A stretch of 64,000 bases of DNA from Rhodospirillales bacterium. GTDB lineage: Bacteria > Pseudomonadota > Alphaproteobacteria > Micavibrionales > UBA1664. The notes under the pieces were generated by a model. The model was not told the DNA's origin. It did no database searches and saw nothing but the letters and a program-made list of their open reading frames with translations. This document shows, in pieces, positions 57,739 to 64,000 of the stretch; the first letter of the stretch is position 1; every line of letters starts with the position of its first letter. The stretch spans positions 1,425,656 through 1,489,655 of the forward strand of contig CP060260.1 in NCBI GenBank assembly GCA_023898805.1, written 5' to 3'. The translations under genes were made by a program, and so were the position numbers.

Positions 57739-58044
57739 ATGGTGATGCAACGCCCTTGGCCGCAGGCACACAAGGACAGACTGGCCGAACTGGCGGACGG
57801 CACGCGCGGGAGCGTGGAAATCGCGGACGTTCTGAATCGCGCGTTCAAAACCGCGTACACGCCGAAAGCGGTTATTGGCCGGGTGCATCGCGAGAATGAA
57901 GGGCGAAAAAAGCGGGAAAAGAGCTTCTTAAATTGCCAGCCCGGGGTACCAGAACGTCTTCTGATCGCACACTGGAAAAAGACCGCGCCTCCCTCCCTAA
58001 AGGTAGGGGTGGTCGCCACAATCAGCCCGGGGCTTTCGGCTTAA
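57739..58044 (+). CDS. GcrA-like protein, N-terminal DNA-binding-domain frame (101-aa zero-frame product)
   Basis: W-x8-L..L......S..EIA..L......TPKAVIGRVHR matches the N-terminal motif of the GcrA cell-cycle regulator family. RBS aaggaaaaaa upstream of ATG 57739. Confidence 0.6.
   Translation: MVMQRPWPQAHKDRLAELADGTRGSVEIADVLNRAFKTAYTPKAVIGRVHRENEGRKKREKSFLNCQPGVPERLLIAHWKKTAPPSLKVGVVATISPGLSA
57906..57912 (+). other. In-phase A_AAA_AAG heptamer (a potential -1 ribosomal slippery site, or the site of a 1-nt indel)
   Basis: Zero-frame codons are CGA AAA AAG (R56 K57 K58). The -1 frame is open from 57900 to 58415. Confidence 0.6.
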
Positions 58045-58415
58045 GGCCCGTCAGGCAGGCACCGTACCGCGCGCCGGAAAAGCCAGAACCTGCGCCCGAG
58101 CCGGCACTTTCGGAATATGATGCGCTTGAAAAACTCGACGCCATGTTCAACTTCAACCTTTCTGCCAACGCTGTGGAAGAAGAGGATCTTTCTCACGCCG
58201 TGGCCAGCATGGGGCCGAAGCCGCCGCGTTGTCAGGAAATTCTGGGTCGCAATAATAAATGTGATATTGCAACCAAACCGGGCGTGACGCGCTGTGCCTT
58301 TCATGCCGCCGTACATCTGTTTGCGGCGCTTGGATACGGCCATGACGACATCTATGACAGCACCCCGGTCGAGGCCGAAATACGCGCCCGGTTTGCCGCC
58401 CTGAAAGCGCCCTGA
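57933..58415 (+). CDS. GcrA-like protein, C-terminal frame (-1 relative to 57739..58044)
   Basis: Pro/Ala-rich linker, then a Cys-x9-Cys-x10-Cys-x2-His cluster (RCQEILGRNNKCDIATKPGVTRCAFH) reminiscent of the GcrA C-terminal C...C...C..H region. No independent RBS/ATG (TTG start in the track). Confidence 0.45.
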   Translation: MPARGTRTSSDRTLEKDRASLPKGRGGRHNQPGAFGLRPVRQAPYRAPEKPEPAPEPALSEYDALEKLDAMFNFNLSANAVEEEDLSHAVASMGPKPPRCQEILGRNNKCDIATKPGVTRCAFHAAVHLFAALGYGHDDIYDSTPVEAEIRARFAALKAP

Positions 58416-58507: not shown

Positions 58508-59728
58508 ATGACCAGCATCATCGTCCCGTCTTTGGGTGAATCCGTTTCCGAAGCCACGATCGCCAAATGGCTGAAGAAGGAAGGTGATCCCGTCAAGCAG
58601 GACGAGCCGCTGGTCGAACTTGAAACCGACAAGGTGACGGTGGAGGTCAACAGTCCCGCTTCCGGCACGCTGGCCGTGATCGGTGCCAAGGCGGGCGAAA
58701 GCGTGAAACCGGGCGCAGTGATCGGCGATGTTGCCGCCGGTGCCGCTGCGCCAAAGGCGCAAGAAAGCAAACCTGCGCCTGAATCCCCGCAACAATCAAC
58801 CGAACGCCCCGAAGCGACACCCAAGGAACCGACACCTGGTCCTGCCGCGCGTAAAATGATGGCCGATAACAACGTGGCCGCGTCTGAAGTCGCGGGCACG
58901 GGCAGGGACGGACGTGTCACCAAGGGCGACGTGATCGCGCATCTTGAACAACCGGCTGCAAAACCGACACCGTCTGCACCGCCCGCTACGACAGCAGCAA
59001 AGTCAAATCCGCCCCGCGACCTTGGCGCGCGCGAGGAACGCGTGAAAATGACAAGGCTAAGGCAGACCATCGCCCGCCGCCTGAAGGAAGCGCAGAACAC
59101 CGCCGCGATGCTCACCACCTTCAACGAAATCGACATGACCGCGATTTTGGCGATGCGCGAGGCGTACAAGGACAAATTTGAAAAACGCTACGGCGTGAAA
59201 CTCGGCTTCATGGGGCTGTTCGTGCGCGCGGCTATCGCGGGCCTGCGCGAATTTCCGGCGGTGAATGCCGAAATCGACGGCGACGACATTATTTATAAAA
59301 ACCACTATGACATCGGCGTCGCGGTTTCGACGCCGCAGGGTCTGGTCGTGCCGGTGGTGCGTGATGCCGACGCCAAGTCGCTGGCCGATATTGAAAAGGA
59401 TATCGGCGCCTATGCCAAAAAGGCGCGCGACGGGCAACTCGCTCCCGCCGACATGATGGGCGGCACCTTTACCATCACCAATGGCGGCGTGTTCGGAAGC
59501 TTGATGTCCACGCCTATCCTCAACGCGCCGCAGGTCGGTATCCTGGGGATGCACAAAACCATGCAGCGCCCGGTGGTAATGCCCGACGGATCGATCGAGG
59601 CGCGCCCGATGATGTATGTCGCGCTGTCTTACGACCACCGCATCATCGACGGGCGCGAGGCGGTCAGTTTCCTCGTCCGCGTCAAGGAATGCCTCGAGGA
59701 CCCGCAGCGTCTGGTGCTTGAAATCTGA
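58508..59728 (+). CDS. sucB: Dihydrolipoyllysine-residue succinyltransferase (2-oxoglutarate dehydrogenase E2)
   Basis: Lipoyl domain ([12 protein letters not shown]), an Ala/Pro linker, the E3-binding segment and the catalytic DHRIIDG. Confidence 0.97.
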
Positions 59729-59733
59729 TACCG

Positions 59734-60867
59734 GACTCTAAACAAAACGATATGTCGATCGCTGCGTTAGTTCTGCATTCAGACCGGGTAACTGCGCGCG
59801 TTTGACGCGCTTCATGCGCGAATCGAAAGCGCCGTATGTATAATTGCGCAGCAGAAATGAATGGCGCAGCTCCAGATACGTGTTGATGCTCCTGCGCTGG
59901 TATGCCGATACCGGGCATGCGGTATCGACGATGTCCAGCACCCGGTCCACGATGTCGTCCGGCATGGCATCCAGCCGCCGCAACCCGTCCTCGAAAGCGC
60001 TGCGTAAAACGGGAATGCCCTCGCCAATTTCTACCGTCATCGAAGCATCTGCAACCTTTGCGTTGTAACGCATCCGGGCCATGTGCAGCATGCTTTCGGA
60101 TATTCCCTCGGGCGGATGGTTGGGGTCGATGCTGGCGGCCCTGAACGCGTCGGCAAGGCTTGTACTATCAAAATCGAATTCACAAAAACGGGTTTTTGCC
60201 GCCGCATTGAGGCATAAATTGCGCGGATCGCGGTCGGTATCCTGTCCCAACCATAACAAAAAGGGCAAGGCGGATGATGTGTGGCGCAGATAGGCGTAAG
60301 AATCCGCATAATCAAGATTGCTGGAATAGACGATGCGCTCGAACGGGACGATGCTGACCATATGAGGCAATTCCCCGGCTTCAGGCACCCGGGCCACAAA
60401 TGTTGGTGCGACAGGAACTCCGGCATATAGCGCGAGGCGCGAAACAAATAACTCCGCCTGCGCAGATGCGGGGCTTCGTAAATTTTCAATGCCCCACGCA
60501 CCCGTTGTGGATTTGTGTAGGTCGAGATCGTGCGTGACCCCATAAACATGCTGCGCGCGATGCCATTCCCCCGGCAGGAATGCGGTTTTCAACGAGTCCA
60601 TTGCCAGCGCATGCGCGGCGCGTGAAAAACTTGTCGAAATCGGGACGCTCATATCCATGCCATGGTGTTAGCATAGAGCGTAAATGTTTGTCATATTTCA
60701 ATTTCAGGCGCGATCCGTGCGGTCACGAAAACTTCCCCGTCGTCCAGCTCGAAGACGAGATGAAGAAATCCTACCTCGATTACGCGATGAGCGTGATCGT
60801 ATCCCGCGCGCTGCCCGATGCGCGGCGACGGGTTGAAGCCGGTCCATCGCCGCATCCTGTACGTGAT
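59734..60867. repeat. Segmental duplication, copy 1 (paralogue gene + shortened upstream region + gyrA 5' fragment)
   Basis: Begins with gactctaaacaaaacgatatgtcgatcgctgc (also at 60912). Ends within gyrA-homologous sequence ...catcctgtacg (also at 62298-62308). Confidence 0.9.
59738..60658 (-). CDS. Hypothetical protein, paralogue 1 of a tandem pair (306 aa)
   Basis: Long ORF in visibly AT-richer DNA. Near-identical N-terminal ~110 aa and a shared internal block ([49 protein letters not shown]) with 60916..61908. Confidence 0.65.
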
Positions 60868-60870
60868 CAA
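60726..60870 (+). pseudogene. gyrA: gyrA 5' fragment (codons ~15-60), frameshifted, with no start codon
   Basis: About 97% identical to 62172..62315. Encodes [33 protein letters not shown], then an extra C at 60826 shifts the frame. Confidence 0.9.
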
Positions 60871-60911
60871 TACAAGATATATGACACCCGTTGATGGTCG
60901 CCCTAAGGTAA

Positions 60912-62312
60912 GACTCTAAACAAAACGATATGTCGATCGCTGCCTTGGTTTTGCGTCCCGACTGGTTGACCGCGCGCTTCCGATCATCTGCGGATTGGAA
61001 CCACCCAATTTATAATGGATCGCCAATTCTGCGTTCAGACCGGGTGACCGTGCGCTTTCGATCATCTGCGGCTCGAAAACTCCAAGTTCATAATGGAGCG
61101 CCAGAAGTGAGCGGCGCTCCTCCAGATACGTGTTGATGCTCCTGCGCTGGTATGCCGATACCGGGCACGCGGTATCGACGATGTCCAGCACCCGGTCGAC
61201 GATATCGTCCGGCATGGCATCCAGCCGCCGCAACCCGTCCTCGAAAGCGCTGCGTAAAACGGGAATGCCATTTAAAATGGTCACATACACCGCAGCCCTT
61301 TTGACGTTTCTAAAGTAATGATTCTGGACTGCATCCAGCGTGCTTTGGGATATCCCCTCGGGTGGGTGGCTAGGGTCTATGCTGGAGGCCAAGAATGCGT
61401 CGGCAAGGCTTGTCTCGCCGAAATTGAATTCACAAAAACGGGTTTTTGCCGCCGCATTGAGGTATAAATTGTGCGGATCGCGTTTATTATACTGTCCCAA
61501 CCATAACAAAAAGGGCAAAGCAAATGATTCGTGGCGCAGATAGGCGCGATTATAGTCATAATCAAGATCACCGGAATAGACGATGCGCTCGAACGGGACG
61601 ATGCTGACCATATGAGGCAATTCCCCGGCTTCAGGCACCCGGGCCACAAATGTTGGTGCGACAGGAACCCCGGCATATAGAGCGAGGCGTGAAACAAATA
61701 ACTCCGCCTGCGCAGATGCGGGGCTTCGTAAATTTTCAATGCCCCACGCACCCGTTGTGGATTTGTGTAGGTCGAGATCGTGCGTGACCCCATAAACATG
61801 CTGCGTGCGATGCCATTCCCCCGGCAGGAATGCGGTTTTCAACGAGTCCATTGCCAGCGCATGCGCGGCGTGTGAAAAGCTTGTCGAAAGCGGGGTATCC
61901 ATATCCATGCCACGGTATTAGCACAAGATATAGGCATTTGCCATATTTAAATTGCGCATGCTGTCCGGCCGGTCGTGAAAACAGGCCCGCACGCTACACG
62001 AAGCAGAAAAACAGAAAACACATTAAAATCAGCATGTTAAAAACGAAAATTCAGTATAAAAATTCTTGGTTTTCCGCAGCGTTTGGGCTAGGTTTGACGC
62101 GATGATTTCAGCCATAAAACGGACCCTGCCATGAGCGCAAAAAACACCCCGGCGCAAACCCCGCCTTCGGGCGAAAACTTCCCCGTCGTCCAGCTCGAAG
62201 ACGAGATGAAGAAATCCTATCTCGATTACGCGATGAGCGTGATTGTATCCCGCGCGCTGCCCGATGCGCGGGACGGGTTGAAGCCGGTCCATCGCCGCAT
62301 CCTGTACGCGAT
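60912..62312. repeat. Segmental duplication, copy 2 (paralogue gene + full gyrA upstream region + gyrA 5' end)
   Basis: Collinear with 59734..60867, except for about 196 nt (61983..62178) absent from copy 1 and an extra 78-bp internal repeat unit. Confidence 0.9.
60916..61908 (-). CDS. Hypothetical protein, paralogue 2 of a tandem pair (330 aa)
   Basis: See paralogue 1. The C-terminus contains an imperfect 26-aa internal repeat (HYELGVFEPQMIESARS... / HYKLGGSNPQMIGSARS...), encoded at 60968-61019 and 61046-61097. Confidence 0.65.
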   Translation of the reverse strand: MDMDTPLSTSFSHAAHALAMDSLKTAFLPGEWHRTQHVYGVTHDLDLHKSTTGAWGIENLRSPASAQAELFVSRLALYAGVPVAPTFVARVPEAGELPHMVSIVPFERIVYSGDLDYDYNRAYLRHESFALPFLLWLGQYNKRDPHNLYLNAAAKTRFCEFNFGETSLADAFLASSIDPSHPPEGISQSTLDAVQNHYFRNVKRAAVYVTILNGIPVLRSAFEDGLRRLDAMPDDIVDRVLDIVDTACPVSAYQRRSINTYLEERRSLLALHYELGVFEPQMIESARSPGLNAELAIHYKLGGSNPQMIGSARSTSRDAKPRQRSTYRFV

Positions 62313-64000
62313 GAAGGACGGTGGTTACGATTCCACCAAATCCTACAAAAAATCCGCTCGCATCGTCGGGGACGTGATGGGGAAATACCACCCGCACGGC
62401 GATTCCGCGATTTACGACGCCATGGTGCGCATGGCGCAGGATTTTTCGATGCGCCTGCCGGTCATCGACGGTCAGGGCAACTTCGGCTCGATGGACGGCG
62501 ACCCCGCCGCCGCCATGCGTTACACCGAGGCGCGACTGGCCAAGGCTGGCGAGGCGATCCTCGAAGACTACGACAAGGACACGGTCGATTTCCGTCCCAA
62601 CTATGACGAATCGATTCAGGAACCCTCGGTCCTGCCTTCGCGCATCCCCAATTTGCTGGTCAACGGCGCGGGCGGCATCGCGGTCGGCATGGCCACCAAC
62701 ATTCCGCCGCACAATTTGGTCGAGGTCGTGGACGGCTGCATCGCCTATGTCGATAACAACGACATCACGATCGAGGAATTGATGGCCGTTATTCCGGGGC
62801 CGGATTTCCCGACCGGCGGCCAGATTCTGGGCCGCGCCGGTATCCGTTCTGCCTATACCACCGGCAACGGCAGTGTGCTGATGCGCGCCAAAACGACGAT
62901 CGAGGAAATCCGCAAGGATCGCGAGGCGATCATCGTCCACGAAGTCCCGTATCAGGTGAACAAATCCAAACTGCTTGAACGCATCGGCGAACTGGTGCGC
63001 GACAAGCAGGTGGAAGGGATCGCCGATCTGCGCGATGAATCCGACCGCGACGGCGTGCGTGTGGTGATCGAACTCAAACGCGACGCGCAGGGCGACGTGG
63101 TTTTGAACCAGCTGTTCAAATTCACGCCGCTGCAAACCAGCTTTCCGTGCAACATGCTGGCGCTCAACCACGGGCGGCCCCAGACCTTCAACCTCAAACA
63201 GTTTATCGAGGCCTTCGTCAAATTCCGCGAGGAAGTGATCACCCGCCGCACCATCTTTGAACTGGGCAAGGCGCGCGAACGCGCGCACATCTTGGCGGGT
63301 CTTGCGGTTGCTGTCGCCAATATCGACGACGTGATCGCGTTGATCCGCAACGCGCCCGACCCGCAACAGGCGCGCGAACAGTTGATGGCCCGCGATTGGC
63401 CCGCGCGCGACGTCGCGCCGCTGATCGCGTTGATCGACGATCCCGAATATCCGGTCAGCGAAAACGGCACCTACAAAATGTCGGAAACACAGGCCCGCGC
63501 CATTCTCGACCTGCGCCTGCACCGCCTGACGGGGCTTGAGCGCGACAAGATCGGCGACGAACTCAAGGACGTCACCGATGCGATCCGCGAATATCTGGAA
63601 ATCCTCGCCAGCCGTGAAAAACTGCTCACCCTGCTTAAGAACGAGCTGGTCGCGGTCAAAACCCAGTTCGGCACTCCGCGCCGGACCGAGCTTGTCGAAA
63701 ACTACGACGAGGCCGATATCGAGGACCTGATCGCGCGCGAGGACATGGTGGTGACCGTTTCCAACGCGGGTTACGCCAAACGCGTGCCGCTCAACACCTA
63801 CCGCGCGCAAAAACGCGGCGGCAAGGGGCGTATCGGCGCGACCACGAAAGAGGACGATTTCGTCACCGACCTGTTCGTCGCATCGACCCACACGCCGATT
63901 CTGTTCTTCACCTCGCGTGGGATCGTCCACAAGATGAAGGTCTGGCAGTTGCCGCTGGGCAACGCGCAATCGCGCGGCAAGGCGCTGGTCAACATGATGC
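62131..64000 (+). CDS. gyrA: DNA gyrase subunit A; the 3' end runs off the window, so it is absent from the ORF track
   Basis: Own translation from ATG 62131 gives [61 protein letters not shown]...[23 protein letters not shown]...[10 protein letters not shown] (active-site Tyr region). The track's 646-aa minus-strand ORF is its antisense shadow. Confidence 0.97.

Follow-up and report, generated by a model that had tools for sequence, protein, structure and literature searches.

Organization of the sucB-gyrA interval

The stretch of DNA analysed here, 64,000 nt from a Rhodospirillales bacterium (contig CP060260.1; called the window, with its numbering used throughout), contains between the genes sucB and gyrA two related genes on the reverse strand, paralogue 1 (P1, 59738-60658, 306 aa) and paralogue 2 (P2, 60916-61908, 330 aa), and between these a fragment of gyrA (gyrA', 60726-60870, forward strand). 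P1 and P2 were taken from the list of open reading frames (ORFs) and placed with an alignment of their kinase-fold family, supplemented by a family hidden Markov model (HMM) score for P1 and by an AlphaFold 2 (AF2) model for P2, the derived copy. The intact gyrA on the forward strand has its ATG at 62131 and continues past the end of the window (62131-64000; Pfam DNA_topoisoIV, E 1e-161; 918 aa in the source contig). P2 and gyrA diverge from an intergenic region (61909-62130) which, from its sequence and the comparison with relatives, presumably holds the promoters of both genes. The left neighbour is sucB, encoding the E2 component of 2-oxoglutarate dehydrogenase (58508-59728, forward strand; Pfam 2-oxoacid_dh, Biotin_lipoyl and E3_binding), which lies outside the duplicated sequence.

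The interval is made up of two units. Copy 1, proximal to sucB (59734-60870), consists of P1, the 68 nt upstream of it and gyrA', and the distal copy 2 (60912-62315) of P2, the complete intergenic region and the 5' part of gyrA. Global alignment of 59729-60915 with 60900-62330 was collinear throughout and in direct orientation, the similarity to gyrA forming part of it. BLASTN against the window gave 84.8 % identity over 964 columns between 59771-60732 and 61027-61982 and 84.8 % between 59734-59799 and 60912-60977, with E values of 0 and 2e-63 for the direct repeat between the units. Both units have the left edge GACTCTAAAC..., at 59734 and 60912, the former being the sixth base past the end of the sucB stop codon at 59728. 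A single novel junction (60871-60911) leads from about codon 61 of gyrA to the base 6 nt past the sucB stop codon. Adjacent, directly oriented and collinear copies with one novel junction are what is expected of a tandem segmental duplication. A preliminary description of this region had already proposed a duplicated unit running from 6 nt after the sucB stop into gyrA, and all its coordinates were right within 1-3 bases.

The gyrA fragment, the deletion and the junction

gyrA' is a pseudogene fragment corresponding to codons 15 to 61/62 of the resident gyrA. It matches 62172-62315 with 96.55 % identity over 145 columns, with 4 mismatches and 1 gap (BLASTN, E 2e-63), close to the 97 % estimated previously. 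As the match begins at codon 15, it contains neither the promoter nor the start codon of gyrA, nor any of codons 1-14. The alignment also contains the previously described extra C at 60826 (GCGCGG-C-GACGGG), which causes a frameshift. With the proximal copy lacking its start and carrying a frameshift, only the distal gyrA is intact, as had been suggested. Some bases, e.g. GTCGTCCAGCTC, are common to gyrA' and the resident gyrA and absent from relatives. Other changes are private to one side: the extra C and a GTG codon to gyrA', and to the intact gyrA an ATT, for which gyrA' and all relatives have ATC.

A 68-aa ORF (60688-60894, forward strand), present in GenBank records as a "hypothetical protein" (MCB9986215.1, USO08654.1), is read through gyrA'. 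It has no Pfam match and results from translating the frameshifted gyrA fragment from a TTG codon. It is probably not a gene but a remnant of the gyrA pseudogene.

Compared with copy 2, copy 1 lacks exactly 196 nt (61983-62178, forward strand). In copy 2 the hexamer GAAAAC flanks this segment, at 61977-61982 and 62173-62178, and in the global alignment a single GAAAAC is left at the deletion junction of copy 1 (60727-60732, forward strand). A gap bounded by a short direct repeat, of which one copy is kept, is the pattern left by a short-repeat deletion and agrees with the microhomology-mediated event postulated in the preliminary description. The loss may, however, have formed in one step during the duplication instead of by a later deletion.

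The unit copies are joined by about 41 nt of novel filler (60871-60911). The earlier view that the junction matches neither the sucB nor the gyrA end was upheld, but not that it is AT-rich, since only its first half is so and a count from the sequence gives 58 % A+T overall. The sequence ACAAGATATA at the start of the filler recurs without mismatch at 61923-61932, a short distance upstream of the start codon of P2 (10-nt match, p about 0.02 before correction), and 16 of 21 bases over 60861-60881 match 61912-61932. The 10-nt match is a weak hint that template switching may have taken place as the junction formed.

Comparison with single-copy relatives

The family of P1 and P2 (the P family) is small, with only 17 members among 1.84 billion cluster representatives in a full HMMER scan. 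In a comparison that included a scan of genome contigs with an alignment of six family sequences, five other genomes (L004, L007, L009, which is on the same contig as L008, L010 and L011) each gave one P match and one gyrA match, without any gyrA fragment. The comparison with single-copy relatives envisaged in the preliminary description thus supports its account. The single P of the relatives is divergent from gyrA and directly adjoins it on the L009/L008 contig and in L010. The gene orders of the others are gyrA - DUF1194 - P - acetyltransferase - sucB - ABC transporter (L004), gyrA - 850-aa ORF - P - 324-aa ORF - sucB - ABC transporter (L007) and gyrA - DUF1194 - P - catalase - LysR - sucB - ABC transporter (L011). 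In all six genomes with readable context P lies by gyrA in divergent orientation.

The interval between gyrA and sucB is otherwise variable: DUF1194, the acetyltransferase, catalase with LysR and the 850- and 324-aa ORFs come and go, and P stays. Identity between the relatives and the window is 87-93 % for gyrA (623 residues compared), 74-76 % for sucB and 30-45 % for P. P has thus long resided between sucB and gyrA and evolves fast, and among these genomes two copies are specific to the organism of the window. That P is resident at this locus and single in relatives supports a tandem duplication in situ.

The kinase-fold family and the derived copy P2

Pfam, NCBIfam and PADLOC hold no family for P1 and P2. 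A PDB sequence-profile search gave only noise, a word-indexed protein search, even with a profile, returned only this organism's own proteins, and a literature search on the accession numbers found nothing relevant. AF2 run on the two paralogues alone gave a mean confidence (pLDDT) of 30; the usable model was obtained with an alignment of 17 sequences. It reached a pLDDT of 86 and a predicted template modelling (TM) score of 0.85 and has a bilobal kinase fold. In a Foldseek search of the PDB the top match was Helicobacter pylori CtkA (3akj/3akk; probability 1.0, TM score 0.47-0.56), followed by dozens of protein kinases, and the viral library gave protein-kinase and PI3/4-kinase-like domains. 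The model suggests that P1 and P2 represent a family of about 300 aa without existing annotation, with a protein-kinase-like fold to which CtkA is nearest.

In the family alignment H37, R74, P85, F87, S102, H126, P132, R143, N147 and F329 are invariant, and the family motif reads LGxDxDRxxxNxCxNA...EFDF. In the model the helix at 121-137 is followed by a loop that contains D142 and N147, by two strands (148-151 and 158-160) and then by D162. From general knowledge of kinases, and not from a superposition, we take these to be the alphaE helix, the catalytic loop (D-x4-N), beta7-beta8 and the DFG position. Both D142 and an acidic residue (D or E) at 162 occur in 15 of the 15 other members, and P1 has kept D142, N147 and D162. 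As to genetic context, no HipB-like antitoxin gene was found conserved beside P: the neighbours vary, gyrA alone is constant, and PADLOC gave no match.

P2 differs from the family at conserved positions, with K142, N162, Y140 (D in the family) and Y149 (C in the family). An HMM built from the 15 other members scored P1 at 302 bits and P2 at 256 bits, and at 31 of the 44 informative columns in which the two differ P1 is the nearer to the family. P2 evolves about twice as fast as P1. Its 3' part contains an in-frame internal tandem duplication of 78 nt (60949-61104, reverse strand; 1.9 copies with 79 % identity in Tandem Repeats Finder), which encodes a low-confidence segment of the model, residues 292-319. 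The reading frame is nevertheless free of stop codons, and both indels are in frame. In simulations of neutral change P2 stayed free of stop codons with a probability of 0.05-0.2, which the two indels, both being in frame, lower by a further factor of about 9. The sequence indicates that P2 is likely a pseudokinase, and we are somewhat inclined to regard it as a retained pseudokinase-like paralogue rather than a dying gene.

Divergence between the copies

The identity of the two copies varies strongly from block to block. Reading from the gyrA side, it is 97 % in gyrA' (2.8 % diverged), 77 % in the 68 nt upstream of the genes (23 % mismatched, with four indels), 96.4 % in codons 1-112, 82 % in codons 113-213, 98 % in codons 214-263, 77 % from codon 264 to the end, where P2 in addition has its 78-nt duplication, and 100 % in the last 32 nt. 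Nei-Gojobori estimates for P1 against P2 gave a synonymous divergence (dS) of 0.06 and a nonsynonymous to synonymous ratio (dN/dS) of 0.45 for codons 1-112. The values were 0.37 and 0.78 for codons 113-213, 0.085 and 0 (dN = 0) for codons 214-263, and 0.28 and 1.06 for codons 264 to the end. Silent divergence is thus uneven along the paralogues (dS 0.06 compared to 0.37, Fisher p 2e-4 on synonymous sites), and gyrA' is far less diverged than the adjoining 68-nt spacer (2.8 % compared to 23 %, Fisher p 8e-6). The duplication had been called recent. Because blocks of 96-100 % identity alternate with blocks of 77-82 %, its age is ambiguous, and a uniformly recent event is not what the data show.

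One history compatible with this mosaic, which we favour at about even chances, is an older duplication in which short gene-conversion tracts have kept some blocks alike. The high identity of gyrA' may also be due to gene conversion. Such conversion would be viable only from gyrA to gyrA', since the reverse would place a frameshift in an essential gene. A possible trace of conversion is found in another assembly of the region (L003, scaffold_363 of ENA ERZ28655704), which differs from the window at just four sites, 61669, 61681, 61690 and 61806. These are consecutive sites that discriminate P1 from P2, and L003 has the P1 base in P2 at each, so that the pattern looks like a conversion tract of 138 nt or more.

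The same mosaic could have arisen in the opposite manner, from a recent duplication (about 3-6 % neutral divergence) followed by patchwise replacement, in which the upstream 68 nt, codons 113-213 and codons 264 to the end were overwritten in one copy by divergent alleles of other strains, or changed under strong diversifying pressure. We consider this possible but the less likely course. The three conserved blocks, gyrA', codons 1-112 and codons 214-263, are alike in their low dS (0.055-0.085), which one young event explains simply. The P family moreover evolves very fast between species, as is clear when its 30-45 % identity is set against the 87-93 % of gyrA, and dN/dS is 0.8-1.06 in the divergent blocks. 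However, synonymous and non-coding sites in the 77-82 % blocks are about 25-35 % diverged, beyond what selection alone produces, and the collections searched yielded no donor allele. The divergent block of P2 also lacks family-invariant residues, unlike a functional foreign allele. Two scans of JGI metagenomes, one by protein patterns and one by an exact DNA word of 36 nt, gave no match.

Upstream regions and neighbouring sequences

According to the preliminary description, gyrA-derived sequence had taken the place of the original promoter region of P1. This was not confirmed, as P1 retains 68 nt of native upstream sequence (60659-60726, reverse strand), homologous to 61909-61976, and is co-oriented downstream of P2. 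A motif of the type AATATGACAA occurs in these 68 nt and also upstream of P in L009 and L010. P1 and P2 are 257 nt apart on the same strand. No terminator-like site was detected between P2 and P1, RNA folding of the spacer was unremarkable (z = -1.56), and no sigma-70 consensus promoter was detected in 59600-62400. Since P1 keeps upstream sequence and follows P2 without a detected terminator, it could be expressed without the sequence that was lost. Transcription from the P2 promoter may read through into P1, and the gyrA fragment would then be transcribed antisense.

At the other end of P1, sucB and P1 are convergent with 9 nt between their stop codons (59728-59740). No terminator-like hairpin was detected there, and the transcripts may overlap. 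Further to the left, between the ABC transporter gene and sucB, two ORFs overlap in different frames, 57739-58044 (101 aa) and 57933-58415 (160 aa). The 101-aa ORF gave a sub-threshold match to the GcrA N-terminal domain (E 0.054), and the 160-aa ORF, which is Cys-rich in its C-terminal part, matched nothing in Pfam. The pair (57739-58415) could be either two small genes or one GcrA-like gene that a frameshift has split.

Discussion

We consider it probable that the locus arose by a direct tandem duplication, with a 196-nt deletion in the proximal copy and with kinase-fold copies that have been diverging while possibly being homogenised in patches. The sequences and comparisons directly show the anatomy of the locus, the single copy of relatives, the recurrence in several assemblies, the kinase-like fold, the residues substituted in P2 and the uneven divergence. 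We infer the order of events, the mechanism at each junction, the gene conversion and the pseudokinase status of P2 as follows. The ancestral layout would have been sucB > < P - gyrA >, with one kinase-fold P divergent from gyrA. In an illegitimate (non-homologous) event about 1.4 kb, beginning at the sixth base downstream of the sucB stop codon and reaching about codon 61 of gyrA, would have been tandemly duplicated, and the copies joined via the filler of about 41 nt. The proximal copy would then have lost the 196 nt between the GAAAAC repeats, i.e. the distal intergenic part, the gyrA start and codons 1-14, and the untranslatable gyrA fragment left behind would later have gained its +1 C frameshift. 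The P copies presumably diverged unevenly, P1 keeping D142, N147 and D162 and P2 acquiring K142, N162 and the 78-nt in-frame duplication. P2, still an open frame, would most likely now be a pseudokinase or regulatory paralogue. The alternation of blocks would be best explained by repeated short-tract gene conversion, tolerated only outside the functionally diverged blocks. Of the interpretation given in the preliminary description, the segmental duplication, the deletion between GAAAAC repeats and the single intact distal gyrA are retained, and the recent age and the replaced promoter are not.

Several observations weigh against parts of this account. A young duplication with imported divergent patches would yield the same mosaic, and one young duplication is also more parsimonious than a number of conversion tracts that are all of the same low age (dS 0.055-0.085). 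The P1-type patch in L003 could be a consensus artefact of the assembler (bubble-popping). No significant match to the filler was found in sucB, gyrA, the intergenic region, the window or any of the compared loci. As for the kinase assignment, no Pfam HipA_C or Pkinase match reached the threshold, one family member matching HipA_C at E 0.019, and most family members have Arg at the usual position of the beta3 Lys. Finally, the structure rests on assemblies, and the locus-tag prefixes H6865 and H6866 of two of these are consecutive, so that they probably stem from one study.

An assembly artefact, in which the duplication or gyrA' would have been made by mis-assembly of mixed-strain short reads, is nevertheless very improbable. 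It is true that every source is a metagenome assembly, that L003 is chimeric left of window position 58667, continuing into unrelated high-GC sequence, that its P1-type patch could be of such origin, and that L002 has runs of N within gyrA. However, the two-copy structure is found in four assemblies, its junctions, filler, extra C and 196-nt deletion being unchanged. A Rhodospirillales metagenome-assembled genome (GCA_020638235.1) contains it on the 920-kb contig JACKIY010000001.1. GCA_020442405.1 holds 3.6 kb of the region at 100 % identity, and L003 the region at 99.9 % identity without gaps. A 1.94-Mb contig with H6866_ locus tags has identical P1, P2 and 68-aa gyrA' ORF proteins, according to a cluster listing. 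In addition, overall divergence between the copies is about 15 %, several indels are in frame, and gyrA and gyrA' each have substitutions of their own, a pattern which collapse or expansion errors do not give. Private changes on both the gyrA and the gyrA' side point to evolutionary divergence and not to duplication during assembly.

Integration of a P-carrying mobile element, or its site-specific integration, into the 5' end of gyrA, with gyrA' as an attachment-site (att) type repeat that the element brought or duplicated and not a duplication scar, is scarcely credible, although the gyrA-sucB interval is variable among relatives and the GC content at third codon positions is lower in the P genes (0.59-0.62) than in sucB (0.72) and gyrA (0.80): P occupies this position in all relatives and hence is resident, the homology of the units also takes in their left end and the whole P gene, as a tandem duplication predicts, gyrA' carries bases specific to the resident gyrA, and the idea is rejected because gene lists and repeat, tRNA and Rfam scans revealed no integrase, recombinase, transposase, insertion sequence (IS) element, tRNA or terminal inverted repeats in or near the units.

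The tandem duplication with subsequent deletion is a known kind of event, an ordinary rearrangement whose mechanism is unsurprising, and it leaves general understanding unchanged. Its interest lies in the fact that all the scars are still readable, i.e. the unit ends, the junction with filler, the truncated fragment of an essential gene and the later short-repeat deletion, with relatives available as controls. The locus also puts the early fate of duplicates on view, one copy having the predicted catalytic residues and the other lacking them yet remaining open, with apparent patchy homogenisation of the two. For annotation, the 68-aa "hypothetical protein" in GenBank can be named a gyrA pseudogene fragment, and the "hypothetical proteins" P1 and P2 can be assigned to a gyrA-linked kinase-fold family. 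New in the present work are the single-copy controls, the corrections concerning recent age and promoter replacement, the kinase-fold family and the kinase/pseudokinase-like split.

A more far-reaching idea is that the P family is functionally tied to DNA gyrase, that the 97 % conservation of gyrA' has been selected, e.g. because it serves in regulation, as a decoy or, within the P2-P1 transcript, as antisense RNA, and that P1 and P2 form a kinase-pseudokinase module. If so, the module would act on gyrase or respond to supercoiling, and the conservation of gyrA' would not be a by-product of gene conversion. The sole support for the tie is the conserved neighbourhood, with P by gyrA in all six readable genomes despite its fast evolution, and we regard the idea as very improbable.

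Comparison with known systems

Spontaneous tandem duplications in Salmonella and E. coli, as studied by Roth, Reams and Andersson, reportedly create new join points and leave shortened copies of the genes at their flanks. The present locus resembles these in its head-to-tail repeat of about 1.4 kb, its one novel junction, the truncated gene at the end-point and the single-copy state of relatives. It differs in having about 41 nt of filler instead of a clean short-homology or IS/rrn-mediated join, and in being fixed and about 15 % diverged overall, not transient or unstable. For the lacI hotspots, in work attributed to Albertini and co-workers in 1982, deletions are said to form between short direct repeats by slipped-strand or RecA-independent events. 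The 196-nt loss is similarly flanked by a 6-nt (possibly 7-nt) direct repeat of which one copy is kept, but it is deduced from paralogous copies and was not seen as a mutation event. The tufA and tufB genes of Salmonella reportedly undergo gene conversion and concerted evolution, according to Abdulkarim and Hughes in 1996. Like these, P1 and P2 have near-identical blocks with synonymous divergence far below that of neighbouring blocks. Unlike in tufA/tufB, the homogenisation would be patchy, would extend to a pseudogene fragment and the essential gene from which it derives, and is deduced from sequence.

Among proteins of known structure the closest parallel is CtkA (JHP0940) of H. pylori, a HipA-like atypical Ser/Thr kinase (PDB 3akj/3akk; PMC5536186). 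The P family shares with CtkA the length of about 300 aa and the D-x4-N spacing in the catalytic loop followed by an acidic DFG-like residue, and CtkA is its best structural match. The sequence identity to CtkA is, however, 11-13 %, and the P family is not a member of Pfam HipA_C and mostly has Arg for the beta3 Lys. The P genes also lie without the context of an integrative and conjugative element or type IV secretion and without a HipB-like partner.

Pairs of a kinase and a pseudokinase paralogue are a general concept. P1 and P2 are unlike such pairs in being a bacterial tandem pair from a tiny, lineage-restricted family, known here from sequence and a model. They are like them in that P1 keeps the predicted catalytic Asp residues, while P2 has lost both and yet has its ORF and predicted fold intact.

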